Origin: Promethearchaeota archaeon
Lineage (GTDB): Archaea; Asgardarchaeota; Lokiarchaeia; Sigyniarchaeales; SOKP01
Reading direction: 5' to 3'
DNA length: 30,019 nucleotides
NCBI GenBank assembly: GCA_048938025.1
Contig: JBHLMP010000012.1
Location: forward strand, 43,137-73,155
Below are positions 5,801 through 22,942 of this stretch, piece by piece. A program made the translations under genes and the position numbers. How positions within the stretch are numbered: the first letter of the stretch is position 1; each line of letters opens with the position of its first letter. The notes beneath the pieces are model-generated. The model made no database searches. It was not told the DNA's origin and saw only the letters and a program-made list of their open reading frames with translations.

Positions 5801-7240
5801 CTTCAATTTCTCTTTTTCATGTAATAATTGCTCTAAATTTATCTCAGTATCACAAATTATTATTCTTTCAAGAAAGAAATCCAAATAAAACCTCTTCTTC
5901 ACGATTTTACCCTTAAAAAAATTACGTTGAATCAATTGATCTACCAAGGGAATAATATCATCTTTTAATTTTAAGGATTTAAATGGGTATTTGGATTTAC
6001 AATCCTTAAATATTTTTTTAAGGGATATTATGCTCTTATTTGAAAGTTGATTATATATCTCTTGAGCAACAATTCTTTTCCCTTGACTTAGGTTACGTAT
6101 AAAATTTTTAAATTCAATCTTATTATTTAAGATTTTTAAATTAAAATTATAGCTTAGATTTATATATGAAATTATTTCTTCAATTACATCTGATAAACCA
6201 AATGTACTTTTTATTTGATTTAAATCGATGTATTTCTCTTTTTCTAATTGTCTAAATAATAATCTCTCAATTTCATTGATAAATTTTTTCCATATCAATG
6301 ACAAAAGAATGATTAATTTTGAAATATCAATTAATTTATTTAAATTCCACCCTGCCTGATTATTTAATATTTCAATTATTTTTAGATTAATAAAAGAAAA
6401 AATACCAGCAGGATTATAATCTAATAACCATGAAAAATTCTCAAGGCCATATACTATCCAAAAGGTAGTATCAATTTCTCCAATTTGTCTAAAACTGAAT
6501 CCACCATTTTCTCTTTGAAATTGGTAGAAATATTGAAGATCCCTTTCACTAACTTCAGAATTTAGATCTAACAATTTCAAACATAATAACTTAAAAATTA
6601 AAGAAGGATTTCTTTTTTTATCACTAATATATGAATTAAATTTGTCCTTTTTTAAACGGATATCAAATCCTAGAATAGTAAATATTTCTATTACGTAATA
6701 TAATGTCTTTGCTGCTAAAGGTTTTTTATCAATTTCACAATTTTTTTCCAGACAATGTAAAAATCCATTTCCTTTCCTGTGAGATAAAATAAAATTTATA
6801 ATCTCTTCTCTACCTTGGCTTTGATCCGATATGGCAAAGTATTCATTCAAAAGCCCTAAGATTTTCAAACTAGAGAGTGCAAAATAAGTGGACCAAATAT
6901 CAGGTATATTTTGGGAATCAGGTTTGAATTTAAAACCTATTTGATTATTTTTATGAATTTCGCATTTTTTAATATAATCAAATATTTTATCTCTAAATTC
7001 ATGCTTATCTTCTTTAAGATATTTTCTTAATAACAGAAACCAATAAATCATTTTAATGTTTAAAGACTCATTAACAAGTAGAGTTTTGTTAAAGTTTTGA
7101 TAAAATTCTACCACTTTATCATAACCACTGAAATAATAAGTCCCTAGTTCTCTTCCTTTTTTGAGCACAAATGATTTAAATGGTTCCTTTTTAAATTCCG
7201 TAATATATGGATAAGCAGTTTTTTGTTCAATTACTGTCAA
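2858..7240 (-). CDS. Large membrane-anchored protein: N-terminal prenyltransferase/squalene-oxidase-like repeats, PCI-like winged helices, long coiled coils, two C-terminal TM helices
   Basis: TTG start after an AGGGGT SD-like site. Repeats GFKF..PDIWSTYFALSSLKILG and QRENGGFS..DTTFWIV. WH/PCI-like segments LVDQLIQRNFFKGKI, IKDMIDISKINAELN and LLNLISDGDLSGKYD. Heptad-rich K/E/N stretches. Two hydrophobic helices and a basic tail at the C-terminus. Confidence 0.8.
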   Translation of the reverse strand: MTVIEQKTAYPYITEFKKEPFKSFVLKKGRELGTYYFSGYDKVVEFYQNFNKTLLVNESLNIKMIYWFLLLRKYLKEDKHEFRDKIFDYIKKCEIHKNNQIGFKFKPDSQNIPDIWSTYFALSSLKILGLLNEYFAISDQSQGREEIINFILSHRKGNGFLHCLEKNCEIDKKPLAAKTLYYVIEIFTILGFDIRLKKDKFNSYISDKKRNPSLIFKLLCLKLLDLNSEVSERDLQYFYQFQRENGGFSFRQIGEIDTTFWIVYGLENFSWLLDYNPAGIFSFINLKIIEILNNQAGWNLNKLIDISKLIILLSLIWKKFINEIERLLFRQLEKEKYIDLNQIKSTFGLSDVIEEIISYINLSYNFNLKILNNKIEFKNFIRNLSQGKRIVAQEIYNQLSNKSIISLKKIFKDCKSKYPFKSLKLKDDIIPLVDQLIQRNFFKGKIVKKRFYLDFFLERIIICDTEINLEQLLHEKEKLKDIKNDIYNMTLKLKNITSQIKDEIESYLILDEIDYAKERLKFIVRNALMDAGFLNENIENSFNEDLYYLNIQTLLKSDITQWNKVYSVIQKRLSEIELYLKEKIFEKENLRDISNLIEKLEAKIGSITEEFTKKLDDFRNLFRETLEQGYSNEKFDLIVQEFDKISQSVSKYDNIIYNVSQQVTTKEKSVLSKHKKVIGDWLSFKENFESIFSYYTSGFQFFNTNMRKIDDIKERVKIEILEISEKAKNITDHNLFQEAFNVIKQESDVLLDKKTKEIKEIQLQVKKDIKSKQKLYLLYGYLLEALDNLEENIIELIAERVQSLKNKVVIERNRTQIEDFDNFVSQEVSKFKTELNNYKNELDQMNNLKIKNVIKGFDDFIAIFEAANNIYLKKLINCKKTIEDFEAKSKVTIIQWEKFKEFLSNEIPALKDRYINEIISKRINLFAYEKKSNYIKLSDLKNDLNLSCKVLINKIKDMIDISKINAELNEEDKYLLVYTDNYYLNKELRNYIDNQLLKLNRERIGKILALYDSSIRKRTLNVNMLELQNRINDLKIFENVIPNQFYNKVNELQIDQERVEFVETKGYFESVIENDKLAIRKINTSLALFNEMINVIDKQYNNLKIETMQNFKAILKKTEYIHSHGEIQEDFESKKKIIEEKSIQTQHKIEEKLKKLWNKTEDSNKLVPEIRELFVKKKNNLLNEFEEKIKEVNDQITMMKHESFREKLMSLINDYKIYLSQLLGNLERKVEDNIEIKEFKRINLIVQKRAKNIEMEIKEINKNINNKIREFNKQSKNFGQISKYILEDYNKFINEYNEILSEKVKSLERLVLKSYIDMTIRAVTNEFLTIGFLNHELKIKKQNIQDHLLNLISDGDLSGKYDPRFGIYYENPDILDELDETELEVIKSTNFKLNMVLRHITNFARQYGPIIALVTSIVTISYYLFLFSGGNPAVIAVPVIITGALLIYYFLQKEKDEKIK

Positions 7241-8270: not shown

Positions 8271-9776
8271 TTATAAACTAGGATCGCTGGCAAAACTCCA
8301 TGTATCTTTAATGCCCAAATTATCTTGAATTAAAGGTGCTTGAATATCATCTATTGACTGTGTTTGTCCTGAAAGTATTAAATTTTTCGCAGAATTAAAC
8401 GCGTTTCCTATTGTCTCAGTTTGATTTAATTGATCCCAAAATGAATGAAAGAACCATGATCCTGCAAAACCATCAGCATTTGTGTTATCTCGCCAATACC
8501 ATGAAAAAACATCTGTTGTTGAAGTGATTAATATAGAATTGGGTATATTGTACCAACTTAGCCCTATGTTTGAGTTTTCATTTAAAAAATTTCCACTAAA
8601 ACAAATATCAATATTAATCAACATTCGTTTACAATTAATTTGTTTAACTAAATTAAAAAATTCCAATTCCGTGATATAACTATCATCTGCTTCGAAATGA
8701 AATGTTGCATTTCCATCACCCAGCATTTTATTTGATCCATGGTCAGTCATAAAAATTATTAATTGATCTTTCTTTGTAATAGTAGAAGCAAAGGAACCTG
8801 GAACTGAAATATCTAATTCTTGTTTAAACCTACTTGAATTCACGTCGTCATTTTCTACATCAACAATAGCATTGGTTAAATCATTTAATACTCCATCATT
8901 TGCGTATATATCTATTATGCTATCATTAGTATGATAGAGCATTAGAAAGATATTATCATCAGTGTACCCATGATTCTTTAGAATCCAGTAAACTTGGAGT
9001 GCTTGAGCAGGAAAACCATCTGAATCTGTATTACTAGGGGGAGGGCTTGGAATTGGTGGTGGAAACCAATATTCTACTTTAATATCATCAAAAAGTACCA
9101 TATCACCACCATTCATAATACCCTCAACTGCTAAAACTAAATGTAATTGAGTTATTTCATTTAGAGTCGAATTGTCGGCAATACCTGTTACATTTAAAAA
9201 TGTCCATCCAAAAAAACCTCCAAATAACCCCGTCGACCAATCTGTTCTTACTATACCATTGCTAGAATTTAACCACCGTAATCCTATTCTTGCCCCTGCC
9301 CCGGGAGGTGTTATATTAGCAGGTGTAATAGGTGAAAAGTTTATATTAGTTGTGATATTAACCCAGGCAGAAAGCCTGTATGCCGCAAATTTAAATAACT
9401 CATAATAATTTGTCCAATTGTATACGAACTCCGTATTAACATATCTGGGCTGTGGAAAACCAGTTAATGTATATAAAAATATAACTCCAGGAGTATCATG
9501 ACCAGGTATAGAGGTATCAACTCCTCCAGACATATTACCGAAATCTGGCGTCCATCTAGGTGGACCTTCAATATCAAATTTTGAATCTTCTCCATCATTA
9601 AAACCAGGTTCACCTTCCTTCCAATAAAAATCATTAGCACTGCAAACTATTATCGCTTTTCTTGTTCCTTTTTCAGTCGGTTTTTCTTCGAGAGGAATTA
9701 ATAATGTAACTAAACCCACGATCAATACTATGGTAATAACAACTATGATAGTTGGAATCCATTTTCTCTTACTCAT
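8271..9776 (-). CDS. Membrane-anchored clan CD / C13-family (legumain, Gpi8/PIG-K-like) cysteine peptidase with an inserted CBM4/9-like domain
   Basis: N-terminal TM; beta1 RKAIIV; VYWILKNHGYTDDNIFLML helix/strand typical of C13; catalytic-dyad motifs IFMTDHG and IDICFSG. The insert has a YRLSAWV..WTFLNVT..VLFDDIKV jelly-roll pattern and ends in a Pro-rich linker. Confidence 0.8.
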   Translation of the reverse strand: MSKRKWIPTIIVVITIVLIVGLVTLLIPLEEKPTEKGTRKAIIVCSANDFYWKEGEPGFNDGEDSKFDIEGPPRWTPDFGNMSGGVDTSIPGHDTPGVIFLYTLTGFPQPRYVNTEFVYNWTNYYELFKFAAYRLSAWVNITTNINFSPITPANITPPGAGARIGLRWLNSSNGIVRTDWSTGLFGGFFGWTFLNVTGIADNSTLNEITQLHLVLAVEGIMNGGDMVLFDDIKVEYWFPPPIPSPPPSNTDSDGFPAQALQVYWILKNHGYTDDNIFLMLYHTNDSIIDIYANDGVLNDLTNAIVDVENDDVNSSRFKQELDISVPGSFASTITKKDQLIIFMTDHGSNKMLGDGNATFHFEADDSYITELEFFNLVKQINCKRMLINIDICFSGNFLNENSNIGLSWYNIPNSILITSTTDVFSWYWRDNTNADGFAGSWFFHSFWDQLNQTETIGNAFNSAKNLILSGQTQSIDDIQAPLIQDNLGIKDTWSFASDPSL

Positions 9777-9980
9777 AAGATTTCACTACATTGAAAAATA
9801 TATTCTTTAATAAAACTATAGTTTCATCAAATTTTTAAATTTATCCTCTTTATCAAAATTATTTTTTCAATATTTCAATGAAATGAAATATGAATCAGTT
9901 AATATAGTCTTAAATAAAAAAATAATATTAAAAAAGAAATAGGTTTAAATGAGCTATTCGCTCATATTTTTAATTCCTCT

Positions 9981-11384
9981 TCACTCTATATCTTTAATAG
10001 ATGGTGTTAAGAAATCTTCTTCTTTAGGTTTTTCTGTCATGTTTAAAAGATTATATTCAGTTATCATCTGAAGTATCCCCATAACTTTCATGCCGTGATT
10101 GTACATATCATTCGCGTCAGAGAGATTCCTCCAGCAAAATGGGCATTCGGTTGTCAAGATATCTGCACCAACAGCATTCGCTTCATCACATCGCAAACTG
10201 GCAGTTCTGAGCGAAAAATCAGGATATCCCGCCCTCACCCCTCCACCAGCACCACAACACATACTATCAAGTTTAATACGATACATCTCTTTAAAGACAA
10301 TACCGACATCCTCTGCAAGCTTTCTAAGAATTATACGTGGAACTTCATACCACTCTTCGATTCTTTTCTTAATCTCTCGCGAATCGAACATAAGATTCTT
10401 GGATTCTCTGATCATTTCTTGTTCAAAATCTACTGCGAAATGTCTTCCTGTATGGCAGGGATCATGATAAGTAACAACCTTTCCCTTTAATTCTTTATTT
10501 GGCTTAAATTTGATTTTCTCTTGTTGAATTAACCTTGCTACTAGTTCAAAAGCGTGCTGTGTTTTGAAAGGAAGCTTTTCCCCTTCAGGCATCCATTTTG
10601 GATAATCAATGGTAAAAGTTCTATAACAACCCGCGCAACTGAAATATACCATTTTTACATTCTTAAAAGCTTCTAAATTTTTATTCATTAATTCTTGAGC
10701 AGTATCAACAGCCCCAATCCTAAAGAAAGGACTTCCACAGCATACTTCATCTCCGATTATAGTGAAATTCATTCCTAATTGTTCAAATAGTTTTGCAGTT
10801 GTAATAGCGACCTCTATTTGACGATAACTTGCTGTACACCCTACATAATATGCAATTTTGGCCTCTTTATTATCTATATATTTTGCTAAACCTGCATCTT
10901 TTGCCCATTTAAATCGTTCTTCTGCTTTACCTCCATATGGATTGTTCAATTCTTTAACCAATCTGTCAACTAATTCATGTTTATCAATCATTGGTACTCC
11001 TGATTCTATACACGCAGCCCGTAAAGATTCAATAATATCAACTGTTGGAATCTTATTATCACACTGAGCTGAACATTGACCGCATGTTATGCATGGCATA
11101 ATTGCATCCCTTACTTCTTCAGTAAATTCTAAATCCCCCGTTAGAATTGACCTAGCAATCCAAATCTTACCAGCATTCCAGAACGCTTCCCAACCATATT
11201 CTATACCAGCAGGACAAGCATCCACCATTCCTTCATAAAGTACTGTACCTTGCTTTCCAGCATACTCTCCTATTCCTTCTCTATCAGGTTCACCAGAATA
11301 AGCGAATTTACATGCCTTACAGTGAATACATTTAAAAATTTCTTTTTTTAGCTCTTGGAGCCTTTCCATTCCTGTTTTTGCCAT
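9981..11384 (-). CDS. HdrD/GlcF-like (Fe-S)-binding oxidoreductase with two CCG domains
   Basis: CxxCxxC..CP and CxxCxxCxxxC ferredoxin motifs; YYVGC..CCG..CAGC and YHDPCH..CCGAGGG..CPFC CCG-domain motifs; strong SD AGGAGGT. Confidence 0.9.
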   Translation of the reverse strand: MAKTGMERLQELKKEIFKCIHCKACKFAYSGEPDREGIGEYAGKQGTVLYEGMVDACPAGIEYGWEAFWNAGKIWIARSILTGDLEFTEEVRDAIMPCITCGQCSAQCDNKIPTVDIIESLRAACIESGVPMIDKHELVDRLVKELNNPYGGKAEERFKWAKDAGLAKYIDNKEAKIAYYVGCTASYRQIEVAITTAKLFEQLGMNFTIIGDEVCCGSPFFRIGAVDTAQELMNKNLEAFKNVKMVYFSCAGCYRTFTIDYPKWMPEGEKLPFKTQHAFELVARLIQQEKIKFKPNKELKGKVVTYHDPCHTGRHFAVDFEQEMIRESKNLMFDSREIKKRIEEWYEVPRIILRKLAEDVGIVFKEMYRIKLDSMCCGAGGGVRAGYPDFSLRTASLRCDEANAVGADILTTECPFCWRNLSDANDMYNHGMKVMGILQMITEYNLLNMTEKPKEEDFLTPSIKDIE

Positions 11385-11403
11385 TTTTTTTTACCTCCTT
11401 TAC

Positions 11404-12891
11404 TTAAGGAAGAGCAAGTCTTCCCGGATGCATTATCATATTAGGATCAAACATCTTCTTTATATTTCTTAAATATTTCCAGTACATCGCTGCTTGACTA
11501 TAAGTTAATGGGGCATGAATATATGGGTCTGGTCTATAATTTAACCATCCCTGTTTTAGGTTATATTCCGTTGTTTCTCTATTCATAGCTTGAACCTTTT
11601 CATAATCTGATTGTTTAGTGGAATCAAAACAGATGATTGGCATACAAATTGCTTGTCGGCAGCGTTCGATACTCGCGATCCACATTACTGGGGGGAATCC
11701 ATATTTCTCCATTGTTGCACAATAATTTTCAGCAAAATGAGCACATTCATTCCATGGTGTGTACCAAGTTATAAATAAAAATCCGGCTTCCCAGAAACTA
11801 TAAGGTATAGCAATTTTATTAGGTTTTTTTAACCTGCTTGCAATTTGTTTCGGATGAAGTTCCTGAGGTTTTACAGCATCAGGATCTTTAGCTCTATTCT
11901 TCTTGAAATCTTCAGCCATTTTGTTAATTCTATTAGTAACATAATCCAGTTCCTCTTGAGTTTGTGCCCAGCACTCCCAATTCATCCACCATTTACTAAT
12001 TCCCATTTCTTTAAAGAATTCATAATCATGGGGTACTTTATCTTTAGGCCATCGAGCCATGACTAAAGGATAATTTCCGCCTTGAACCATAACAGCGTTA
12101 TGGGCAATTCCAAATTCTTGTTTCCCAATTTCTAACGTTAAATCTTGCATATCATAAGGGTTGGACATACCCCATACAACTACGGTCTTAAATTCAGGAT
12201 GAGGAAAAATCTTAACTGCGACTTTTGTAACCACTCCTAAAGCACCTTGACTCCCCATAATAGTTGACCAAATATCAGGTCCTAAACCATATTTATAAAA
12301 GGGTTTAGCAAAAGGAAGAGCCCAGGAGCCAGTTCGTACAATGTCACCATTTGGAAATACAATTTCTCCACACATAAAATTATCTCCTTGTGGTCCGACG
12401 CTTGAAGTATAGAGAGAAAAACCTCTATCAATGGCGTCGCCCATAACAGTTGAAGCTGGTGGAGCACCATCTGGGATAGGGGGCGCCCAATCTGGAGTAT
12501 TCTTATGCATATAAGCCCAAAGTTCACCAATTGTTACCCCAGGCTCGACAACGGCATACCGATTATCTGTGTCAATTTCAATAATTCTATTCATTCTGCT
12601 CAAATCAAGAAGAACTCCAGCAGGCTTAATTGTTGGACATGCAAACCCACCGGATAAACCTGCAGAAACGGGACTTACTGGAATTTTTTCAGCAGAGCAG
12701 TATATTAAGATTTTACGGATTTCTTCAACATATTTTGGACGTACAACGATATCAGGGATTTGACTTTCTAGACCCATAACAGACTTTGCAAGATACGATG
12801 CTGTAATTGCTTTATTATTGGTAGCGTATTCTTTGCCAACAATACCAACCATAGCTTCTAAATCTTTCTCGTCTGGTAATTTATATGACAT
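11404..12891 (-). CDS. FAD-binding oxidoreductase of the VAO/PCMH (GlcD/D-lactate dehydrogenase/4-cresol dehydrogenase) family
   Basis: PDIVVRP..LLDLSRMNRIIEID..AVVEPGVT FAD_binding_4 signature; GSQGALGVVTK; C-terminal KKMFDPNMIMHPGR. Lies 19 nt upstream of the Fe-S partner. Confidence 0.9.
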   Translation of the reverse strand: MSYKLPDEKDLEAMVGIVGKEYATNNKAITASYLAKSVMGLESQIPDIVVRPKYVEEIRKILIYCSAEKIPVSPVSAGLSGGFACPTIKPAGVLLDLSRMNRIIEIDTDNRYAVVEPGVTIGELWAYMHKNTPDWAPPIPDGAPPASTVMGDAIDRGFSLYTSSVGPQGDNFMCGEIVFPNGDIVRTGSWALPFAKPFYKYGLGPDIWSTIMGSQGALGVVTKVAVKIFPHPEFKTVVVWGMSNPYDMQDLTLEIGKQEFGIAHNAVMVQGGNYPLVMARWPKDKVPHDYEFFKEMGISKWWMNWECWAQTQEELDYVTNRINKMAEDFKKNRAKDPDAVKPQELHPKQIASRLKKPNKIAIPYSFWEAGFLFITWYTPWNECAHFAENYCATMEKYGFPPVMWIASIERCRQAICMPIICFDSTKQSDYEKVQAMNRETTEYNLKQGWLNYRPDPYIHAPLTYSQAAMYWKYLRNIKKMFDPNMIMHPGRLALP

Positions 12892-13089
12892 TTTAATCTT
12901 TCTTCATATTTTTTGATTTTTTTATTAATATAATATAATATTTTGGTAAATTAACTACTAAATTTTAAATTTTCTTATATCTTTTTCAAGCAAAAAATAA
13001 CTTTTTCTTATAGAAGTTTTGTAGAATTCCGAATTACAATATTACATTATTGTAAATTATTTTAAATGAAGAGAAAAAGCAGAAATTAA

Positions 13090-13796: not shown

Positions 13797-14600
13797 TTAT
13801 TGTTTAAAAAACATTTTTGATGAATATCTTATACCAATAAAAAGGAAAAACAGAGAGAAGATTAAAGTTAATGGTAAGTGCCCTACAATTATGTAGGCGA
13901 AATTAGGTTCTGTTGAATAAAAATATAGCGTAATAGTTATCACCAGATATATTAAACAGTTTAAAGTAGCAATTTTCCAATTTGAAGACAAAAATCCTAG
14001 AATTAAATTAGGGAGTATAAATAAAATACTTATGTTTATGGTAGACAATAATATTAAAATAGGCATAAATCTTGTAAATAATTGTTCTGGAGTAAAGAAT
14101 CGGTTCAAATTAAAATAATTATACATAAAAGAAGTTACGTTTATGCTCAGGAGAATTAGAAAATAACATAAACATCCTACGATTATCCATGACAATAATA
14201 ATCTTATCTTTGGAGAAGGCATAATTTTCCTTCTTAAATTATTGTTAATTATTCTTTCCATATCATCAGGGTAAATTGTTTCAAGATCATAATCAGGTGA
14301 ATAAGAATCAATGAAATCTTGCATTATATTTTTAACAATTAATGTCACTAAATGGTTATTGTCGTTAGTACTTACAACAGTAGCTCCGAGAATTCTTTCT
14401 TCTGAATTAGGTACTAAAATAAGTTTATTATTTTCTCCGAGATCAACATTTTTAACTATACCTCCTAATGCTTCTCTACTAAAGTTAGCAATTGATGAAA
14501 AAAATCCTATTAAGACATTTTGATCATATTTTTCTTTCATAAAATTTTTAGAATACAACAAAAATCCGTTCTCATCCAAGAAATATATACTTTTTATCAT
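13797..14600 (-). CDS. Longin/roadblock-like N-terminal domain fused to about four TM helices
   Basis: MIKSIYFLDENGFLLYSK..LIGFFSSIANFSREALGG.VKNVDLG.NKLIL matches the longin beta-beta-alpha-beta pattern. Four hydrophobic segments make up the C-terminal half. ATG at 14600 is used here; the ORF track uses TTG 14609. Confidence 0.75.
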   Translation of the reverse strand: MIKSIYFLDENGFLLYSKNFMKEKYDQNVLIGFFSSIANFSREALGGIVKNVDLGENNKLILVPNSEERILGATVVSTNDNNHLVTLIVKNIMQDFIDSYSPDYDLETIYPDDMERIINNNLRRKIMPSPKIRLLLSWIIVGCLCYFLILLSINVTSFMYNYFNLNRFFTPEQLFTRFMPILILLSTINISILFILPNLILGFLSSNWKIATLNCLIYLVITITLYFYSTEPNFAYIIVGHLPLTLIFSLFFLFIGIRYSSKMFFKQ

Positions 14601-14637
14601 ATGATACAACTTTTTTTTATAATTCTTAATTATATTT

Positions 14638-16344
14638 TTAAGTTATTTCATAAAATTCTGAATAATCTTCTAAAGAAGCTTTATATCTTTTAAAACCAAA
14701 AAGATTTTGACTAAATAAATCTACTAATCGAATTATCATTTGATCAGGCTGATCTTTTACAAATATTTTAAATCTCTCATTTCTTCTTTCTTCTATGATT
14801 TTAGCTATTTCATCAAATTCATATAATTTTTTTATTAAGTCTTCACCCGGATTATCTAATTCAATTATAATTATTTCACCAGATTGAGGTAATTCTTCAA
14901 TTAAATTGTTGAAGGTTCCTGTTTTAGATTCTAAATTGCTGATAGTTAGGATTTGATCACAATTGGATATTATTCCTTCGGGAGCATAAAAGATTAAAAT
15001 CACATGGAACTTTTCTTTAATTTTTTTCATGTAATTATTAAATTTATCATATTCTAATCGGTCTAATATTTCAAAAGGAATAAAGAACATAATTATTGAA
15101 GGAAATTGTAGTAAAGCCCTGGCAATCGAAAATTGGAGGAATTCTAATTGATTTAATTTGGAAGTTCTTTTATTTTTCTTATGTAGTAATCCAGTGACTT
15201 CTAAAGCATTTTTAATATATATATTTTTAAGACGAAATCTCTTTGAAGTAGCTAAAAATATTTCTTCCATTATATCATCAATCTTTGGTCCAAAACCAGC
15301 ATCTTTCAATATTGTGTTCAATGTAGTTTTTCTATTTTTAAGGATTTCATTAAGATTAATATCATATTTGATTGCTTTCTTAATTTTCATGTTTTTTATT
15401 TTTGATTCATACGCTTGGGGTAGAATTACTATTTTTTCTAAATCTTTTTTATTTAATTGTTGAATATGACTTCCAAAAATCTCAATTGTCCCAGAAAAAT
15501 CAGAATAATTTCCCGAAATAGCCCAAAATAAATAAAATAAATCATATTTATGTTCTTTATCATGGAGTTGTTGTTCCTCATAGAGTATCCCTATTGATTT
15601 TCCTCTATGAATATTGAATGAGACATTTTTTATTCCATTTTTAATAGATACATTATTAAGAATTAAATGCTGAGAATTTTCCTTTAATTGATCCAATTTT
15701 AGATGGTCTGTAACAATTTCACACACTTCATCGATTAGTTGATAAATGTGAGGGGGCTTTAGCTCATTCCAGCTTTTAATAATATTTTTTTCATTAAATT
15801 CTCTTTCATTTATAATTTTTAAAAGTGTTTTCGAAAAGAAAAATGAGGGTAAGAGAGGGTATTTTTCAAAATTTATCTTTAATATTATTATAAAATATGG
15901 GAAAAAAATTCTAATCTCTCTAAAGTAAGGATTATTCTCGATTGGATAATTTTCGAACTTTTTATCTATTAATTCCACTTCTTTATCTAATAATGTTAAA
16001 CGCTTTTGAAATTCTTTTCTAATAAGTTTCCTCATACGTTCAATAATTTTTCTAGGACTGACAAGACCATCCTCATCAAAATCAGGTTCTACAATAATTT
16101 CATTAAAATCAATTTGTTCTTCTATTGGGGTATAGATTTTTAATAATGGTACTCCTTTTTCCATAACGTCTTTGTTTGTAAAAAATAATACTTCGATAAA
16201 CGACTTTTTATAAATTAAATTTAGAATTGATGCAATTCCAAACGTATTTTCTCTATATGTCATCCAAAAGCGCTTCGAATATCTAATTGCTTCTAAGATT
16301 TTTAATCTTAGACGCTCTAATTCATCATTTCTAAAGTTTTTCAA
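14638..16344 (-). CDS. UBC/UEV/RWD-like domain(s) fused to a degenerate (Walker-less) ABC ATPase domain
   Basis: TTG start with an AAGGTG SD, overlapping the upstream stop. ILKINFEKYPLLPSF..KSWNELKPPHIYQLI is UBC-fold-like with no catalytic Cys. IKNVSFNIHRGKSIGIL, LPQ, SIARALLQFPSII and CDQILTI are NBD-like, but GxxGxGK, LSGGQ, DE and the H-loop His are lost. Confidence 0.7.
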   Translation of the reverse strand: MKNFRNDELERLRLKILEAIRYSKRFWMTYRENTFGIASILNLIYKKSFIEVLFFTNKDVMEKGVPLLKIYTPIEEQIDFNEIIVEPDFDEDGLVSPRKIIERMRKLIRKEFQKRLTLLDKEVELIDKKFENYPIENNPYFREIRIFFPYFIIILKINFEKYPLLPSFFFSKTLLKIINEREFNEKNIIKSWNELKPPHIYQLIDEVCEIVTDHLKLDQLKENSQHLILNNVSIKNGIKNVSFNIHRGKSIGILYEEQQLHDKEHKYDLFYLFWAISGNYSDFSGTIEIFGSHIQQLNKKDLEKIVILPQAYESKIKNMKIKKAIKYDINLNEILKNRKTTLNTILKDAGFGPKIDDIMEEIFLATSKRFRLKNIYIKNALEVTGLLHKKNKRTSKLNQLEFLQFSIARALLQFPSIIMFFIPFEILDRLEYDKFNNYMKKIKEKFHVILIFYAPEGIISNCDQILTISNLESKTGTFNNLIEELPQSGEIIIIELDNPGEDLIKKLYEFDEIAKIIEERRNERFKIFVKDQPDQMIIRLVDLFSQNLFGFKRYKASLEDYSEFYEIT

Positions 16345-19300
16345 CTTTCGGCACCTTCATTGCTTTATAACGAAAATATTGTTCCATTTTAGAATCCATT
16401 TGTTTTAATTCCTGAATTGAATTCTTACCCATTTCTTCTTCTATTTTTTCAAACAGTTTATCTATATTTAGATTAGTAAATATTGAAAAACTGATATTTG
16501 CTTTATTTTCTAAAACTTTTTCTATACCTTCAACTAGTTCAAGTCGAGCAATTATATTCTCTTTTGGCTCCCTAAAAGTAATTTCAATCGATCTACCTTT
16601 TCCTGGTAAAGTAGCTAAAAGGTTTTTTGGTTCTCCAAAATCGATCATTCCACGTTTTCGACCAAATATAGCAACAAGATTACAAAATCGGGATTCTTCA
16701 GGATAGTGAGTAATCACAACTAACGTAGTTTTAAATTGCTCATTGATTTTAGTTAAAACTAACCATAAGTTCTCTCTAACTACTGGGTCTAAACCTGATG
16801 TAGGCTCATCTAATATAAGAAACGTTGGTGAATGTATTAATCCAATTGCAATGCTAACACGTCTTTTTTGCCCACCAGAAAGGTCTTTGACTAATTCATT
16901 CATTTTATCTTCTATTTCTAAGCTACGCAAAATTCTCTTAGATCTACTAATAATTTCTTTTTCTGAAAGACCATAACGACTTCCAAAATATAATAAATTC
17001 TCCAAAGTTGTAAAATTATGATAGATTTTTCCTAAATCTTGTGGCACATATCCATATATAGGTCTAATTCTTCTTGACGATCTTTTATTCATATCCATTC
17101 CATAAATTTGACAAAAACCTCTAATTTTTCTCATACCAAGTAAACCTTTTACGAACGTAGATTTACCGGCACCACTCTCTCCTAGAATTCCTAATATTTT
17201 ACCATGTTTTACATTCATAGAAACAGAATCAACAATTAATTTTCCTCCTGCATAAATACTTAGGTTTTCACAATTAATGGCTGGAAACTTTTGCAAATAA
17301 GAAATATTAAGCTTTCCTCCAATACCCAATGTTAATCTTATCCTTTGTGGTATTGAAAGTCTTTGATATAATTTTAACAAAATGAATAAACCAATTCCAG
17401 CAATTTCTGCTATTAAAATATATGTTAATAATTGACTCCAGGGTTTAGAATCAAAGCTCTGGTCATACTGTAATTCATCCACAATAATTATACCATAAGC
17501 TATATTTCTTAAATCTCCTCCAAATCCAGGATTATCTCCAATTCCTCCAGTATTTAAACTAATGCATTGAATAAACCAATTTAAAGTATTTTCAATATTT
17601 TCTGGTTGGAACCTATAATCATAAAGTGCTTTTGCTCCAATATAAGTTATTAAAAATGTTGATGGTAAAGATAAATAACTCCCTAGGGCAGGCAGAACTG
17701 AAAAAGAACCATCAAGAGTTTGTGCATTTTTTAGAAATTCGATGGCGGATATTTTAGACATTGGTTCGGAATGTAGCAATTCAGTAAATATTTCAAGTCC
17801 ATAATAGGTTGAAATTACATCACTATAAAATCCAACATATAGCGAAAACCCACCATCAGGATTTTGACATGATCTCATCCAATGAGTAAGATTATTATAA
17901 TCGATATGATTTACTCCACCGAGTATTTTCAATGAAGTTAAAGCCCAATATGTACTTTCAACAGTTGAGATATTCGCATTAATTAAATACAAAAATACTT
18001 TATACAATGGTCCAAACATAGAGAGAATTATTTCAACATCTCCACCTATGCTAAACCCTCCATCAGGATTTTGGAGATCAACTAAATACCTTTTTGTATT
18101 ATTAATTGTAGAGGAATCAAGCCATTCATTAGTGAAAGGACGAAGCATTTTGTAGATATTCAGTCCACAATAGGTTGAAAAAAGTGTTGCATTTTCTCCA
18201 GGATTGGATGCAAATCCTCGATTATATTGATTATAACATTGGTTAACGAAAAATGTAATATTATTTAGTATATCCTCATTAATGATTTCCTCATTTATTG
18301 TTCCATACAATATTTTTGGATTATATTTATAAAGCGCTAAAATTCCAAAATAATTCGCTTGAATAGTAGTCCGACCAAATAAAGAATTTTTACCTTGAAA
18401 ATAATGAAGCCAATCATAATACCTAAGAATTATATCGTTGATCCCGGAAAAATTCGTTAAATTGTCTTCTCTTAGAATATCGATTGCTTTTATAGCAGCC
18501 CATCCAGATTTAAAGTTTGAATTGTCATCAGGATGTAAGCCAAAACCTCCATCTGAGCTTGAACAATCAAGTATATAAGATAAAGTTTTTGTATCGTTGA
18601 AAAATGTGGGTTTTGGTAATCCTAATACTCTTAATGAGGAAAGCGCATAATATGTTGATTGGACATCGGAAAATCCCCCTATGATGCTAGCAAATCCTCC
18701 ATCGATGATGTTATAAAGTGAATTATAGTATCCCCAAATAGCAGTTTGTTCACTAGCTGTATAACTCATATTCAACCCTAAAAATGCTTTGATTCCATAA
18801 TATGTTGTTTCTGCTGTTGCGATACTTAAAACAGTGTCTGTTAATTTGTAACTACCAGCAAGCCATGTTGAATTGATGAAATTTGAAATGTTATCATTAT
18901 CAATGATAAATTCAGCATTTAAGGTGTTTGCTAAATCAATAGCCATTGATGTAGAAATTATATCAGATTCATTTAGAAAGGGTAATGCCATGAATCCTTC
19001 TCCATTATCTTTCAATGAAACATTTAAATAATTAATAATATTATCTGTGTCTCCCTGCTGTATTTTTCGAGTTAAATAAGATTTATTAGCAATCTCTAAA
19101 GTTTTTAAAGCGTTATAAGTGGAAATCATGTTACCAAGTCCAGCTACATCTGAATATGACCCATCTATATTTTGTTTTTCAAATATGTAATCAAAAAATA
19201 TATTTGGTTTGTATGCTTTAATGTATATATTTGAAATGTTATTTGGGTTTATTAAATTGGAAGAAGAAATACTCGCAAAAGAAAAATTTATTGAGTCAAT

Positions 19301-19531
19301 TGCTCTGAAATTTGAATCTAAATTCGGTTCGATGAATAATCCCTGCTCATTTTGATGCGTCCATGTAAAAAAAACAGCATTGTCTTTAATGAATTGAACT
19401 TCATGATCCTCTATATATGAAATGTAACGAACGTTCACTAGAACTAAAGAAAGACTTGTAATACCAATGAGAATGCTCATTAATAATAAGTTTCTCAAGT
19501 TTCGCTTGTTTTTACGGCTTAAATTAATTAT
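16331..19531 (-). CDS. Fusion protein: N-terminal TM/signal, extracellular prenyltransferase/squalene-oxidase repeat barrel(s), TM helix, intact ABC ATPase (start ATA 19531 or ATT 19528 by SD; TTG 19498 in the ORF track)
   Basis: About 9-10 Q/N-x-D-G-G-F...STYY/WAL repeats; many N-x-S/T sequons; TM LLTYILIAEIAGIGLFILL; Walker A GESGAGKS, Q-loop GYVPQ, LSGGQ, Walker B LILDEP, H-loop ITH. Confidence 0.88.
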   Translation of the reverse strand: MINLSRKNKRNLRNLLLMSILIGITSLSLVLVNVRYISYIEDHEVQFIKDNAVFFTWTHQNEQGLFIEPNLDSNFRAIDSINFSFASISSSNLINPNNISNIYIKAYKPNIFFDYIFEKQNIDGSYSDVAGLGNMISTYNALKTLEIANKSYLTRKIQQGDTDNIINYLNVSLKDNGEGFMALPFLNESDIISTSMAIDLANTLNAEFIIDNDNISNFINSTWLAGSYKLTDTVLSIATAETTYYGIKAFLGLNMSYTASEQTAIWGYYNSLYNIIDGGFASIIGGFSDVQSTYYALSSLRVLGLPKPTFFNDTKTLSYILDCSSSDGGFGLHPDDNSNFKSGWAAIKAIDILREDNLTNFSGINDIILRYYDWLHYFQGKNSLFGRTTIQANYFGILALYKYNPKILYGTINEEIINEDILNNITFFVNQCYNQYNRGFASNPGENATLFSTYCGLNIYKMLRPFTNEWLDSSTINNTKRYLVDLQNPDGGFSIGGDVEIILSMFGPLYKVFLYLINANISTVESTYWALTSLKILGGVNHIDYNNLTHWMRSCQNPDGGFSLYVGFYSDVISTYYGLEIFTELLHSEPMSKISAIEFLKNAQTLDGSFSVLPALGSYLSLPSTFLITYIGAKALYDYRFQPENIENTLNWFIQCISLNTGGIGDNPGFGGDLRNIAYGIIIVDELQYDQSFDSKPWSQLLTYILIAEIAGIGLFILLKLYQRLSIPQRIRLTLGIGGKLNISYLQKFPAINCENLSIYAGGKLIVDSVSMNVKHGKILGILGESGAGKSTFVKGLLGMRKIRGFCQIYGMDMNKRSSRRIRPIYGYVPQDLGKIYHNFTTLENLLYFGSRYGLSEKEIISRSKRILRSLEIEDKMNELVKDLSGGQKRRVSIAIGLIHSPTFLILDEPTSGLDPVVRENLWLVLTKINEQFKTTLVVITHYPEESRFCNLVAIFGRKRGMIDFGEPKNLLATLPGKGRSIEITFREPKENIIARLELVEGIEKVLENKANISFSIFTNLNIDKLFEKIEEEMGKNSIQELKQMDSKMEQYFRYKAMKVPKVEKL

Positions 19532-20547
19532 TTCTTAATCACCTTCATTGTCTTTAAATTCTTTTCTTTTTCTTCCTCCTTTTGAATCCTAATTTGAAAA
19601 TATCTTCTAAAAGAAGCAAAATCTTTACTCATTGAATTAATTTTTATGTCATTCTTAACCATATATTGAATTAATTTTGATAGATTTTCCTCAAAATCAT
19701 CCATTAGGACCTCAATTTCTTCATTTCCAACCCTTAATAATGTTTTAATAGCTGAGAATTGTTTAATATATTCAATTAGCTCTTCATTTAAATGTTCAAT
19801 TGTAAATCTTGCGACTAATCCATTACTCGGTAATGATGATATTAACTTTTGAGGTGTATCAAACTCTAACAATTTTCCTTCCCTTAAAATCGCTGCTTTA
19901 TCACATATCAATGCTGCTTCAAGGTCATGAGTTATAATAAACATGGTAGTATTTAATGTTTGATTTAGCTTTTTCAGGTACGTAAGAATATCGTATCGTT
20001 TACTTGCATCTACACCTGTAGTTGGTTCATCAAGGAATAAAACACTTGGTCTGTGAATTAGTCCAAGTGCCATTGAAAGACGTTTCTTTTCACCCCCACT
20101 CATGTGTTTAACTCGCTTTTTCCATGTATCTTCAGGGAGGTCAAGAATCTTAAATAAACTCTTGGCAGTTTCTATTGCTTCTTTTTTATTCTTGCCATAA
20201 GTTGAAGTAAAAACTTCAACATTATCAAATGGACTTAAATCAAAATATAAATTTAGTAACTCTAATTGAGGTACATAGCCAATATTAGTCAATATTAATG
20301 AATGATTAGATTTTTTTGCTGGAGATAAATCAGTTACCTTTACATTACCAGTCCAATTTTTTTTTTCTATTTGACATGTTAATACTCTAACTATTGTTGT
20401 CTTTCCTGCTCCTGAGATTCCGAATAATCCAATAATCTCTCCCTGATTCACATCAAAGTTAACGTCATGAATAATATGTTTTTCACCAAATTTTACATTT
20501 AAATCTTTGACATCCACCATTGTTTTCTGTGATTTCGATGAATTAAT
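19528..20547 (-). CDS. ABC-2 type transporter ATP-binding subunit (ATT at 20547 by SD; ATG at 20520 in the ORF track)
   Basis: Walker A GISGAGKT, GYVPQ, MSGGE, LFLDEP, ITHD, plus a C-terminal regulatory domain. Confidence 0.93.
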   Translation of the reverse strand: MNSSKSQKTMVDVKDLNVKFGEKHIIHDVNFDVNQGEIIGLFGISGAGKTTIVRVLTCQIEKKNWTGNVKVTDLSPAKKSNHSLILTNIGYVPQLELLNLYFDLSPFDNVEVFTSTYGKNKKEAIETAKSLFKILDLPEDTWKKRVKHMSGGEKKRLSMALGLIHRPSVLFLDEPTTGVDASKRYDILTYLKKLNQTLNTTMFIITHDLEAALICDKAAILREGKLLEFDTPQKLISSLPSNGLVARFTIEHLNEELIEYIKQFSAIKTLLRVGNEEIEVLMDDFEENLSKLIQYMVKNDIKINSMSKDFASFRRYFQIRIQKEEEKEKNLKTMKVIKK

Positions 20548-20550
20548 TTT

Positions 20551-21783
20551 TTACACCTCATATTTTCTTCTTCTGAAGATTACAAAAGAAATTATCACTA
20601 ATATTAGACTAATTATAAATAACCAAAAGAAATGCATACCAATTACAGGCTGACCTTTTGTAATAATTCCTCTGATCATAGGATCTCCATGAGATAAGGG
20701 TAGAATATATGCAAAAAATTGTAAAAAAGAAGGCATATTTTCAATAGGAATGAATATACCACTTAATAATACTATAACAAGATAGAAAGCGAGAAATAAT
20801 TGATTAGCCTGTGTTTTTGTCTTACTCTGTGAGCTAATAAAAATACCCAATGATACTCCAGAAAATCCAATGATGAATAATGCTATAAATAAATCTACTA
20901 TATTGCCTGCCAGATATAATCCCATAGCCAAACTACTAATTACTAATAAAGTAACCTGAAGTAATAATACAAGCATATATGCTATATATTTTGAGGTTAG
21001 AATTTCAGATCTTTTTAGAGGAGTAAGTAAAAGTCGTGCGACTGGTTTCTCTTGAACGATTACTAAAATAGATAACACAAATGCAATCCCAAAAACCATG
21101 AAAGATAGAGCCATAACTATACTAGAATTGAATGAACTGCTATAACCCTCCGGAATAGTAAATTCTTCAAATCCTTGGACCTCAAATTGAGGAGTTAGAT
21201 TCGTATCATTTATAAATATTTTAATTGAATCATAGACCGCATTTAGACTCTGTTGAATATATAGAATATTTGAAGCATCAAGAATACAATCGATTAATCC
21301 GGGAAGACCCCATTCTAACATTTCAGAAAAACCAACTGGTATTGATAAAATAATTCTAATAGATCCAGAAATTAAATCCTCTCTTGCTTGTTCCATAGCA
21401 TAAATTTCTTCTGTTGCATTATAGAACCGAACCAAATCAAGTAACTCTGATTTATTCACGGCATTTACATAGGGTATAGTATAATGATCTAATTTTGATT
21501 CTACAAGATCATTTTCATTAATAAATGTATTAGAATCATATGATACTACTACACAGGGAATAGATTGTAGTTGACTCGAATCATCGGTCATTGTAAAACC
21601 TAACATAACTATTATTAAAGGGGGCATCACTATTGCTAACATTATATTAAATTTATCAGCCCACAAAAGTTGAAATTCTTTTTTGACTTGTTTTACGATT
21701 CTAAGAATACTCAGTTTTAAATTTATAATTTTATTACTGAATTTTTTAAAATTTAATCTTAAAGATTTCTTCTTAAATCTCAC
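20551..21783 (-). CDS. ABC-2 type permease (YbhR/YhhJ-like) with a large extracytoplasmic loop
   Basis: KKEF..DK N-terminal motif, TM1, large loop, ARLLLTPLKRSEILTSK, LSGIFIP..MP..LPLSH. GTG start with a GAGGT SD. Confidence 0.92.
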   Translation of the reverse strand: MRFKKKSLRLNFKKFSNKIINLKLSILRIVKQVKKEFQLLWADKFNIMLAIVMPPLIIVMLGFTMTDDSSQLQSIPCVVVSYDSNTFINENDLVESKLDHYTIPYVNAVNKSELLDLVRFYNATEEIYAMEQAREDLISGSIRIILSIPVGFSEMLEWGLPGLIDCILDASNILYIQQSLNAVYDSIKIFINDTNLTPQFEVQGFEEFTIPEGYSSSFNSSIVMALSFMVFGIAFVLSILVIVQEKPVARLLLTPLKRSEILTSKYIAYMLVLLLQVTLLVISSLAMGLYLAGNIVDLFIALFIIGFSGVSLGIFISSQSKTKTQANQLFLAFYLVIVLLSGIFIPIENMPSFLQFFAYILPLSHGDPMIRGIITKGQPVIGMHFFWLFIISLILVIISFVIFRRRKYEV

Positions 21784-21787
21784 TATA

Positions 21788-22942
21788 TTATACCTCTAAT
21801 TTCTTAAACATGTAAATGATGTAAGCTAATATAATATAAATCAAAGAACTTAAATTAAGCCAAAAAAGATTATATAAATTTGGAAATAATCCTTTTAATG
21901 TTATATCGGTTATCAGTGGAACTGCATTTGATAGCGGGAGTAAATTTATAAAAATTTGTGCCCCTTGCAAATCAGTATTTAAAGGAAGAATATTTCCAGA
22001 AAAAAGGATTATCACAATAAACATAATTATATACATTTGATTTGCACTTTGCTCTGTTGGGCTTAAAGTTGAAATAAATAACCCAATGCAAATCCCGCAA
22101 AAACCAATCATTATTAGAACCAAAAAAAGAAAAAACAATGAACCTAAACTATATAATCCAAAGAATGATACCATAACAAATATCTCAGCTGATTGAAGTA
22201 GCATAATCATCGAATTCGCAATCAATTTACTCAAAATTATCTCTCTTTTAGCTGTTGGAGTTACAAGCATTCTTGGAAGTGGACCCTCAGCAACGATTGA
22301 GAGCGAGGTTAAATTCATAGTAGTTCCAAGAATTATAATGGGTAAAATTAATGGAATAGCGTAATTTAAAATAGCTGATTCCCAAAAGGGAACATCAAAT
22401 TCTAAATATGGAACCATCATTGTAAAATTGGCAATCATGCCTGTTTCTGCCCGAAATAAAGCAATAGGCTCTTGTATGGCAACTTCAATAGCTGTTATTG
22501 CAGCAAGATCAGATGCATCAATATAATAAATTAGAACTGGGCTAATCTTATTTTCAACGGATTCTGAAAAATTTGCTGGCAGAATTATGATTATGTGTAT
22601 ATCGCCATTTTTTAGGAAATTATAACAATTATGGTATGCATTATCAAATTCTTCTGAATTGGTTGCATTATAATATCTATAAAGGTCCCAAGATGAGGTA
22701 TTATATTGCATTATTGATATGAAGGTATCATCATATTTAGAGGAATTATTAGGAAAATCGTCATATGTAGGCATATCATCACAAGTTATAATAGCAGATG
22801 AAAAAAATTTTGTAATGCCTACTCCGGTTGTTAGACCAAATACAACAATTAAAATAATAGGAATTACAAACAACAACAATAATGTCCTTTTATCTGATCT
22901 GATTCTACCAAATTCTTTTCTAACTAATCCGCCTAAATACAT
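21788..22942 (-). CDS. ABC-2 type permease (YbhS/YhhJ-like), paralogue of the downstream permease
   Basis: RKEFGRIRSDKR, TM1, large loop with sequons, RMLVTP...EIILSK, FSGNILP..LLPLS. Confidence 0.92.
   Translation of the reverse strand: MYLGGLVRKEFGRIRSDKRTLLLLFVIPIILIVVFGLTTGVGITKFFSSAIITCDDMPTYDDFPNNSSKYDDTFISIMQYNTSSWDLYRYYNATNSEEFDNAYHNCYNFLKNGDIHIIIILPANFSESVENKISPVLIYYIDASDLAAITAIEVAIQEPIALFRAETGMIANFTMMVPYLEFDVPFWESAILNYAIPLILPIIILGTTMNLTSLSIVAEGPLPRMLVTPTAKREIILSKLIANSMIMLLQSAEIFVMVSFFGLYSLGSLFFLFLVLIMIGFCGICIGLFISTLSPTEQSANQMYIIMFIVIILFSGNILPLNTDLQGAQIFINLLPLSNAVPLITDITLKGLFPNLYNLFWLNLSSLIYIILAYIIYMFKKLEV

Follow-up and report, generated by a model that had tools for sequence, protein, structure and literature searches.

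A predicted outward-facing double toroid fused to an ABC ATPase within an accessory ABC-2 gene cassette of Asgard archaea

Transporters of the ATP-binding cassette (ABC) type rank among the best-mapped membrane machines, yet one gene of a Promethearchaeota archaeon encodes an unusual layout, in which a long array of prenyltransferase-type repeats is joined through a membrane segment to an ABC ATPase. The gene lies in a stretch of 30,019 nucleotides (nt), hereafter the window (assembly GCA_048938025.1, contig JBHLMP010000012.1, positions 43,137 to 73,155). What is this fusion, on which side of the membrane do its repeats lie, and which machine does it serve? The first-pass annotation, made without database searches, had placed it at 16331-19531 and described barrel repeats, transmembrane (TM) segments and a complete nucleotide-binding domain (NBD) in one frame. 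The domain content was recovered by both Pfam and AlphaFold2 (AF2), and the open reading frame (ORF) at 16331..19498 on the minus strand is single and uninterrupted over 1055 codons. The reading frame given earlier therefore stands, and only its upper end has to be corrected: the start codon is a TTG at 19498, and 19531 lies 33 nt too far, at the stop of the upstream gene. The database copy begins at M7; the longer start used here matches the homologues in the alignment.

The encoded protein of 1055 amino acids (aa) consists, in order, of an N-terminal hydrophobic anchor, about 655 aa of prenyltransferase-beta-type repeats, one TM helix, a DrrA-like ABC ATPase and a C-terminal regulatory domain. 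Pfam matched Prenyltrans (PF00432) in four stretches (expectation value E = 1.1e-35) and ABC_tran (PF00005) at residues 757-901 (E = 2.3e-26), and six QxxDGGF-type motifs were found at residues 109, 263, 313, 476, 545 and 593. The AF2 model, built from a 36-sequence alignment with a mean predicted local distance difference test score (pLDDT) of 82.1, shows an N-terminal helix (2-21), two toroids (about 27-348 and 349-683, mostly at pLDDT >90) and a long helix (684-713), in agreement with the roughly two alpha/alpha barrels that had been estimated from some 650 aa of repeats. Residues 715-811 are poorly modelled, and beyond them lie the remaining NBD and a C-terminal alpha/beta domain. The parts of the gene are as follows.

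19430..19495, minus strand: N-terminal hydrophobic segment, signal anchor or signal peptide (residues 2-23; Kyte-Doolittle peak 5-23; AF2 helix 2-21)
18455..19420, minus strand: toroid 1, alpha/alpha, prenyltransferase-beta-type repeats, predicted outside the cell (residues 27-348; PF00432; AF2 helices 31-344, pLDDT mostly >90)
17450..18454, minus strand: toroid 2, alpha/alpha, predicted outside the cell, directly on the membrane helix (residues 349-683; best Pfam stretch 467-644)
17360..17449, minus strand: single TM helix linking the ectodomain to the ATPase (residues 684-713; AF2 and hydrophobicity scan)
16604..17287, minus strand: DrrA-like ABC nucleotide-binding domain, catalytic motifs all intact (residues 738-965; PF00005)
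16334..16603, minus strand: C-terminal regulatory-type domain, as in TM_1403, NosF and ABCA ATPases (residues 966-1055; Foldseek matches 4yer_A, 7o0y_B, 6xji_C and ABCA chains)

The NBD is an ABC ATPase of the DrrA-like subfamily. Its catalytic residues are invariant in all 36 homologues, including the Walker A sequence GESGAGKST, Q820, the signature LSGGQ (S874-G876), D897/E898 and H931. TIGR01188 (drrA) matched with E = 3e-46 and 158 bits, below the equivalog-type cut-off of 312, so that the DrrA assignment denotes subfamily likeness only. By fold, the domain is nearest to the NBD-plus-R domains of TM_1403, NosF, PmtC and the ABCA proteins (Foldseek), and a three-way alignment with the NBD proteins encoded on either side of the fusion extends through the C-terminal regulatory domain.

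The fusion is real, conserved and restricted to Asgard archaea. A word-indexed search of 5.8 billion proteins gave 1212 matches at E <= 0.001 among 7996 scored candidates. The best 120 were listed (51-100% identity, most of them 990-1068 aa, bearing Loki-, Thor-, Hermod- and Hod-type names), and the domain-architecture search that had been proposed for this protein found PF00432 and PF00005 together in every one of them. HMMER, run exhaustively on 1.84 billion representatives with only the ectodomain as query, returned 445 matches at E <= 1e-3 and 24 at E <= 1e-30; both domains were present in all nine distant full-length representatives scanned, which are 31-36% identical in the ectodomain and, where named, belong to Promethearchaeota or Lokiarchaeota. 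Among 150 further proteins from the ectodomain searches (P0122-P0271; the top row, P0003, is not among them), only 15 have an NBD, all being family members or fragments, and no independent case of the architecture outside the fusion family was found. The ESM Atlas holds a single cluster with this architecture, with 89 members, all from Archaea. Short ectodomain matches may be contig-edge fragments, and no systematic search for stand-alone or split ectodomain forms was made.

Across 301 genomes of the phylum, 52 match the fusion at E <= 1e-10 and 37 at family level (E <= 4.4e-62), the latter without internal stops; these 37 are the window's own genome, 33 of the 68 others of its family, a single genome from each of two more families in the class, and one genome of a different class. 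The gene is covered by contigs of four DNA runs, which come from four studies. The junction near 17300-17450, for which a check of coverage had been advised, is crossed at 17223-17722 by a contig of another study (X4, record 11) that bridges ectodomain, TM helix and NBD with 7 differences, and there is no chimera. In the most distant members, identity is 24-39% in the ectodomain versus 54-70% in the NBD, and the ectodomain residues that are invariant among 24 members are only the Gly, Phe, Asp and Gln of the repeat scaffold, namely the GGF loops and their Q/D.

The topology of the fusion was read from its hydrophobic segments, which are two in number (residues 5-23 and 690-708). Net charge is -3 over residues 668-687, the 20 ahead of the second segment, and +4 over residues 711-730, the 20 behind it. 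The segment preceding the NBD is present in all 24 family members, followed by a net charge of +2 to +6, even where ectodomain identity falls to 24%. The N-terminal hydrophobic segment stands behind a K/R-rich start in 20 of the 24; the other four resemble N-terminally shortened gene calls. Because the ATPase must be cytoplasmic and one helix parts it from the repeats, the toroids are predicted to lie outside the cell and the NBD inside. With this single helix, the charge pattern and their presence throughout the family, the alternative of a cytoplasmic barrel, named at the outset as a possible refutation, was not upheld. The weakly hydrophobic stretch 488-506 was considered as a third TM segment and rejected, because the NBD would then end up outside; in the AF2 model it forms two short helices within toroid 2. 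The ectodomain had also been called rich in N-glycosylation sequons. It has 16 N-x-S/T sites against 9.8 +/- 2.7 in shuffled sequences (fraction reaching 16, 0.02), and the density across 36 homologues is 2.14 per 100 aa versus 0.95 in the cytoplasmic part, with N71 conserved in 35 and N509 in 34 of the 36; N209, N436 and N176 are also among the conserved sites. The enrichment is thus present, but it is modest and hardly remarkable.

What are the toroids? By sequence and fold they are nearest to the beta subunits of protein prenyltransferases and have the alpha/alpha toroid of PFTB repeats. Comparison with Protein Data Bank (PDB) sequences aligned toroid 2 with the beta subunit of GGTase-II/III (RabGGTase/GGTase-III) at residues 513-600 (E = 7e-16) and toroid 1 with RabGGTase beta at residues 256-328, and Foldseek matched toroid 2 to 6j74_B with a TM-score (target) of 0.65. 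Toroid 2 is conserved better than toroid 1, with 14 versus 6 invariant columns. A motif scan of the full sequence found none of D-x-C, DxDD, DDxxD and CxEQ, which agrees with the earlier statement that neither the zinc motif nor the cyclase motif is visible. The conserved cysteines of the ectodomain occupy the repeat position C-Q-x-x-D-G-G, no ectodomain histidine is invariant, and no alpha-subunit repeat of the PPTA type (PF01239) was matched in the window's own genome, which is 96.7% complete.

Three known kinds of protein were compared with the toroids and rejected. A canonical prenyltransferase beta subunit does not fit in view of the missing Asp-x-Cys...His zinc site, the missing PPTA alpha subunit and the non-cytosolic location. 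A class II terpene cyclase does not fit for lack of DxDD, and SQHop_cyclase_N reached 23.1 bits, below its cut-off of 26.2. As for the thioester domain of alpha-2-macroglobulin and complement, CxEQ is absent and TED_complement gave only a weak match in relatives. The invariance of scaffold residues only, together with the low identity of the ectodomain, points to a scaffold with a freely changing surface, that is, to a binding module rather than an enzyme. We therefore read the toroids as a non-enzymatic, outward-facing binding module and not as enzymes of known kinds; the suggestion of a non-canonical catalytic domain found no support in residues of which only those of the repeat scaffold are invariant.

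The first-pass annotation had missed that the fusion belongs to a conserved ABC-2 cassette of several genes, among them a dead third ATPase, and that this cassette forms an accessory module. The cassette genes lie on the same strand in the order permease 1, permease 2, free ATPase, fusion, dead ATPase paralogue and 270-aa membrane protein, with gaps of 4-30 nt or an overlap of 14 nt. The genes beside the fusion are as follows.

21788..22942, minus strand: ABC-2 permease 1, 384 aa (PF12698, PF12679, PF01061; TM1, an outside domain of ~150 aa, five more hydrophobic segments)
20551..21783, minus strand: ABC-2 permease 2, 410 aa (PF12698/PF01061; same layout as permease 1, ~30% identical to it)
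19528..20520, minus strand: free DrrA-like ATPase, 330 aa, motifs intact (PF00005; TIGR01188, E = 1e-54; stop 29 nt ahead of the fusion start)
14638..16344, minus strand: dead ATPase paralogue, 568 aa (start overlaps the fusion end by 14 nt; AF2 pLDDT 85.5; Foldseek 4yer_A, TM-score (target) 0.72)
13797..14609, minus strand: membrane protein, 270 aa (soluble N-terminal domain of ~135 aa and four hydrophobic segments; no Pfam hit)

In each permease, TM1 and TM2 are separated by an outside domain of about 150-160 aa. The free ATPase retains Walker A, Q-loop, signature and Walker B in 11 of 11 related loci. The dead paralogue opens with about 215 aa of alpha/beta modules, behind which come an NBD fold and a regulatory domain (AF2). 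Its best structural match is that of the fusion, TM_1403 (4yer), but alignment against both live NBDs showed that Walker A, signature, Walker B and H-loop are lacking, and none of these four motifs occurs in any of 33 family members. It has 203 homologues and no Pfam hit; the 120 listed are named 'hypothetical protein' in Asgard metagenome-assembled genomes or 'ABC-type multidrug transport system ATPase subunit' by JGI, with no Pfam domain on record. Its N-terminus reads helix, beta-meander, helices, twice over, with a conserved Y162-P163-x-x-P166, a pattern compatible with an RWD domain by AF2 secondary structure. Neither RWD/UBC-like nor longin domains were found in this N-terminus or in the 270-aa membrane protein by Pfam (E up to 10) or by a PDB profile search, whose best match, Rpb8 (E = 0.003), is probably due to chance. 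The 270-aa protein is the final cassette gene in the window's own family, and in the Atlas it matches unnamed Promethearchaeota clusters only.

Synteny was sampled at 12 loci of 12 genomes. Both permeases adjoin the free ATPase and the fusion in 10 of them, and one further locus ends at a contig edge; the dead ATPase is present in 11, the twelfth stopping just past the fusion; and the 270-aa membrane protein occurs in 9, all of the window's own family. The order permease-permease-NBD-NBD is retained even in the most distant loci (L030-L032). Partner permeases, by which an ABC-2 exporter is recognized, are encoded with the ATPase, except in two genomes: in G141 they sit next to the usual flanking genes but on another contig, and in G077 the query used did not find them. 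Furthermore, in 5 of the 18 loci with a free ATPase, its gene is broken into two frames at residue 168/169 beside an intact fusion (L009, L011, L014, L015 and L020, in G141, G077, G104, G264 and G065, five species of one genus). The split point lies just behind Walker B and the D-loop, and both halves are 71-80% identical to the window protein. The split form may be a functional ATPase in two pieces, the mark of a programmed frameshift, or decay that the five species share. PADLOC gave only generic ABC-ATPase-type matches (mad3, mad8 and AriA) on the two live NBDs and none on the permeases, the dead ATPase, the membrane protein or a 195-aa neighbour, so the cassette is not a known anti-phage defence system.

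The cassette is an accessory, optional module. The fusion occurs in 8 of 21 other genomes of the genus, and many of the non-carriers are 92-100% complete. The flanking genes for a flavin adenine dinucleotide (FAD) enzyme and a coenzyme A (CoA) ligase stand about 0.9-1.1 kb apart in all five non-carriers checked, which belong to the same genus, versus 10.3 kb here. This short spacing indicates that the cassette was gained or lost as a block.

Relatives of the ectodomain were found in the window's own genome and beyond. PF00432 matched five ORFs of this genome, among them three other membrane-anchored proteins in which a toroid lies between an N-terminal hydrophobic segment and a C-terminal TM segment. 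No NBD, D-x-C or DxDD was found in these three, which seem to form a small family of surface toroid proteins anchored in the membrane, so that toroids of this type recur as a surface module in the organism. In two genomes of other Asgard families, a double toroid 27-29% identical to the fusion ectodomain is joined to 7TM_transglut and a cytoplasmic, sugar-transfer-type ATPgrasp_ST domain, with a double-toroid protein (680/816 aa) upstream and a transglutaminase-core protein downstream. These proteins represent a second wiring of a related outside module to a cytoplasmic ATP-using enzyme.

L033:1829-4885 (contig C51): membrane-anchored PF00432 protein, own genome, 1018 aa
L034:1353-3686 (contig C68): membrane-anchored PF00432 protein, own genome, 777 aa
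L035:1223-2332 (contig C41): membrane-anchored PF00432 protein, own genome, 369 aa
L036:7296-11465 (genome G087): double toroid, 7TM_transglut and ATPgrasp_ST, 1389 aa
L037:7226-11434 (genome G146): double toroid, 7TM_transglut and ATPgrasp_ST, 1402 aa

The explanation that we favour, as a probable one, is that the fusion provides one of the two functional ATPases in a heteromeric exporter of type V (ABC-2) and contributes an outward-facing double-toroid module for binding or hand-off. The subunit composition, binding role, lipid-like cargo and route of fusion that we infer would be the following. The exporter would comprise the fusion together with the free ATPase and the two permeases encoded beside it, and the retention of signature and Walker motifs in both live NBDs is expected if each completes the other's site. 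The N-terminal extension would loop outside as two toroids, with a hydrophobic anchor in front and the TM helix behind. Only about 24 residues lead from the TM helix to the NBD, which forces the helix and the adjoining toroid to the rim of the pump, so that the toroids would sit at the rim of its membrane domain. There they may receive, present or hold the hydrophobic, lipid-like cargo of the pump, or dock the pump to a surface ligand, an outward-facing role suggested by analogy with LptC on LptB2FG, MlaD on MlaFE and NosD on NosFY. The dead ATPase paralogue and the 270-aa membrane protein would be dedicated accessory subunits, and the whole cassette would be gained and lost as a block, as an optional module. 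The simplest and most likely origin may be a read-through fusion of a tail-anchored surface toroid gene with a downstream ATPase gene. Complex prediction for ectodomain residues 27-686 with the two permease outside domains gave a score of 0.00, which is no evidence either way.

Several observations weigh against this account. The fusion could instead have the third, dead NBD as its partner. The split of the free ATPase at 168/169 in 5 of 18 loci beside an intact fusion, together with permeases that are on another contig or not found in two of the split-ATPase genomes, suggests that the fusion may not strictly need a neighbouring pump. A toroid type that is elsewhere joined to 7TM and ATP-grasp domains fits a sensor as well as a cargo role, and fast evolution of the ectodomain would be equally expected of a surface protein pressed by viruses or partner organisms.

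The strongest competitor, possible though unlikely in our view, is a receptor or sensor in which an outside ligand bound by the toroids would control the ATPase inside, either directly or via the dead ATPase and the small membrane protein, the pump being regulated by what is sensed instead of passing its cargo through the toroids. In two other Asgard genomes, related double toroids are fused across the membrane to 7TM_transglut and ATPgrasp_ST, a pattern typical of a sensor ectodomain that can be reused; the ectodomain changes at about twice the pace of the NBD, and conservation with the fusion extends to two dedicated, non-catalytic accessory proteins. However, Pfam found no kinase, transcription factor or other output domain in the cassette, both live NBDs keep the full hydrolytic motifs as in working transporters, and signalling through a single helix usually requires dimerisation.

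It is less probable still that the cassette encodes two machines, of which the permeases with a homodimer of the free ATPase would be an ordinary exporter, and the fusion with the dead ATPase, perhaps joined by the small membrane protein, a separate membrane device. The dead ATPase always adjoins the fusion, overlaps the end of its gene at the stop codon by 14 nt and shares its best structural match, 4yer; moreover, fusion, dead ATPase and membrane protein stay together as an intact block in G141 and G077, where the free ATPase is in two frames and permeases are elsewhere or not found. Nevertheless, a dimer of the fusion with the dead NBD would have no complete ATP site, since the dead partner lacks Walker A and signature (0 of 33 members carry them), whereas the fusion's own signature and Walker residues are invariant, and the order permease-permease-NBD-NBD persists in the most distant loci.

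A further view, which we hold only as a doubtful extension of the exporter, is that the cassette is an Asgard-specific lipid machine. The pump would extract isoprenoid lipids or polyprenyl-linked glycans from the single membrane and load them into the toroids, which lie against that membrane in this view and would pass them to the surface, to protrusions or vesicles, or to syntrophic partners, with the dead ATPase and the small membrane protein tying the process to cytoplasmic regulation. Relatives of the toroid fold bind farnesyl and geranylgeranyl chains. If true, the cassette would be an archaeal counterpart of Lpt, Mla and ABCA lipid trafficking in the closest relatives of eukaryotes.

That the toroids act as an extracellular enzyme, a non-canonical prenyltransferase or cyclase working on a lipid-linked substrate supplied by the pump, seems very unlikely. 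Their homology with the beta subunits of protein prenyltransferases is clear and their double-toroid layout resembles that of class II cyclases, but the zinc triad, DxDD and DDxxD are all absent, the genome encodes no alpha subunit, and no polar residue beyond the repeat scaffold is invariant among 24 members. Diphosphate donors are not expected outside the cell. An assembly chimera or a frameshift hiding two genes is refuted by dozens of independent assemblies that carry the same frame of about 1000-1100 aa, free of internal stops, and by contigs of other studies that cross the junction.

Several neighbouring genes and more distant toroid proteins were also noted. The gene of the FAD-binding enzyme (window 11404-12891, minus strand) is intact here; at L021 and L023 the match to its homologue falls into two parts (q1-46 and q41-495), and in three non-carrier genomes the match begins at q33-36 and contains one TGA and one TAA. 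A recoding site, an alternative start or a frameshift near the N-terminus may account for this difference. Together with a CCG/4Fe-4S protein, the FAD enzyme is the most conserved gene of the neighbourhood (70-96% identity across carrying loci). The G+C content of the window is 24-37% overall; over these two genes, at 9000-13000, it rises to 0.32-0.37 versus 0.24-0.30 elsewhere. A protein of 501 aa encoded at 8271-9776 (minus strand) has a legumain-type Peptidase_C13 domain at residues 257-475. Another, of 1460 aa (2858-7240, minus strand), has a partial Prenyltrans match at residues 47-207 and a very long K/E/N-rich helical middle resembling a coiled coil; its hydrophobic segments are only C-terminal (1410-1451) with no N-terminal signal, and it is probably a cytoplasmic tail-anchored protein. 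The 369-aa toroid protein listed above adjoins an ORF of 313 aa that shows zinc ribbons and a partial match to actin. Two distant prokaryotic toroid-repeat proteins, P0153 and P0154, matched the N-terminal domain of Ribophorin II (PF05817) with 28.5 and 26.4 bits against a cut-off of 23.4, which hints that this domain of an oligosaccharyltransferase subunit is akin to the toroid repeats; Pfam found no PF05817 in the fusion protein.

The first-pass annotation knew of no characterised ABC system with this topology, and no description of the fusion architecture or of the cassette was found in the open literature, supplementary tables, which may list the family, lying beyond that search. Both domains already appear in names given by automatic annotation, such as JGI's 'ABC-type multidrug transport system ATPase subunit/prenyltransferase beta subunit'. 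In the part of the Asgard transportome paper considered here, ABC2 systems are handled only generically (PMC7997004). An Asgard GTPase paper states, in the section concerned, that BLAST found no homologues of RabGGTase subunits (PMC10933270); the toroid repeats are such homologues at the level of the domain, but not the enzyme. Cryo-tomography of Lokiarchaeum, in the portion of the paper used here, describes unidentified 'complex surface proteins' in an Asgard cell with a single membrane and no ordered S-layer (PMC9834061). Membrane-anchored toroid proteins are candidates for part of these surface proteins. If the toroids bind isoprenoid lipids, the cassette would offer a way to test how lipids are trafficked and membranes remodelled in the lineage closest to eukaryotes; if they only dock or sense, the fusion would still be a clean new example of an ectodomain wired to a cytoplasmic ATP-using engine.

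Known systems share individual parts with the cassette. The beta subunits of RabGGTase, GGTase-III and FTase have the repeat family and the toroid fold in common with the fusion, whereas the fusion has two toroids in tandem, predicted outside the cell and anchored at both ends, without the D-x-C...H zinc site and without an alpha subunit. Tandem toroids are also found in class II cyclases, such as the beta-gamma didomain of squalene-hopene cyclase, and sub-threshold SQHop_cyclase matches occur in the fusion and its relatives; however, these cyclases are monotopic enzymes of the cytoplasmic face with a DxDD motif, while the fusion toroids are predicted outside and have none. In the TagGH exporter of wall teichoic acid in Bacillus subtilis, the ATPase TagH continues via one TM helix into an extracytoplasmic domain, a partial precedent for an outside domain tethered to the motor of an ABC-2 exporter that the first-pass annotation had not named; compared with the fusion, TagH is bacterial, its NBD comes first, and its C-terminal outside domain is small and not a toroid. 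In LptB2FGC and MlaFEDB, an extracytoplasmic lipid-binding partner anchored by a single TM segment (LptC or MlaD) takes lipid from the ABC transporter on which it sits. LptC and MlaD are separate proteins with a beta-jellyroll or MCE fold, and the Lpt and Mla transporters have type VI and VIII folds, unlike the cassette; LptB and MlaF are among the NBD fold matches of the dead ATPase paralogue (Foldseek).

We know of no characterised ABC system in which the motor subunit threads back through the membrane to a 650-aa outside double toroid alongside a conserved dead third ATPase. The closest are the type V exporters TM_1403 (4yer), NosDFY (7o0y), PmtCD (6xji) and human ABCA1/3/4/7, whose NBD plus regulatory fold is the best match for both the fusion and the dead paralogue. 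NosDFY works with an extracytoplasmic partner, and, like the permeases of the cassette (PF12698/PF01061), ABCA transporters carry a large domain on the outside between TM1 and TM2. In the type V exporters named, the ATPase is not extended across the membrane into a large outside domain and there is no dead third NBD subunit, whereas the Asgard cassette has both.

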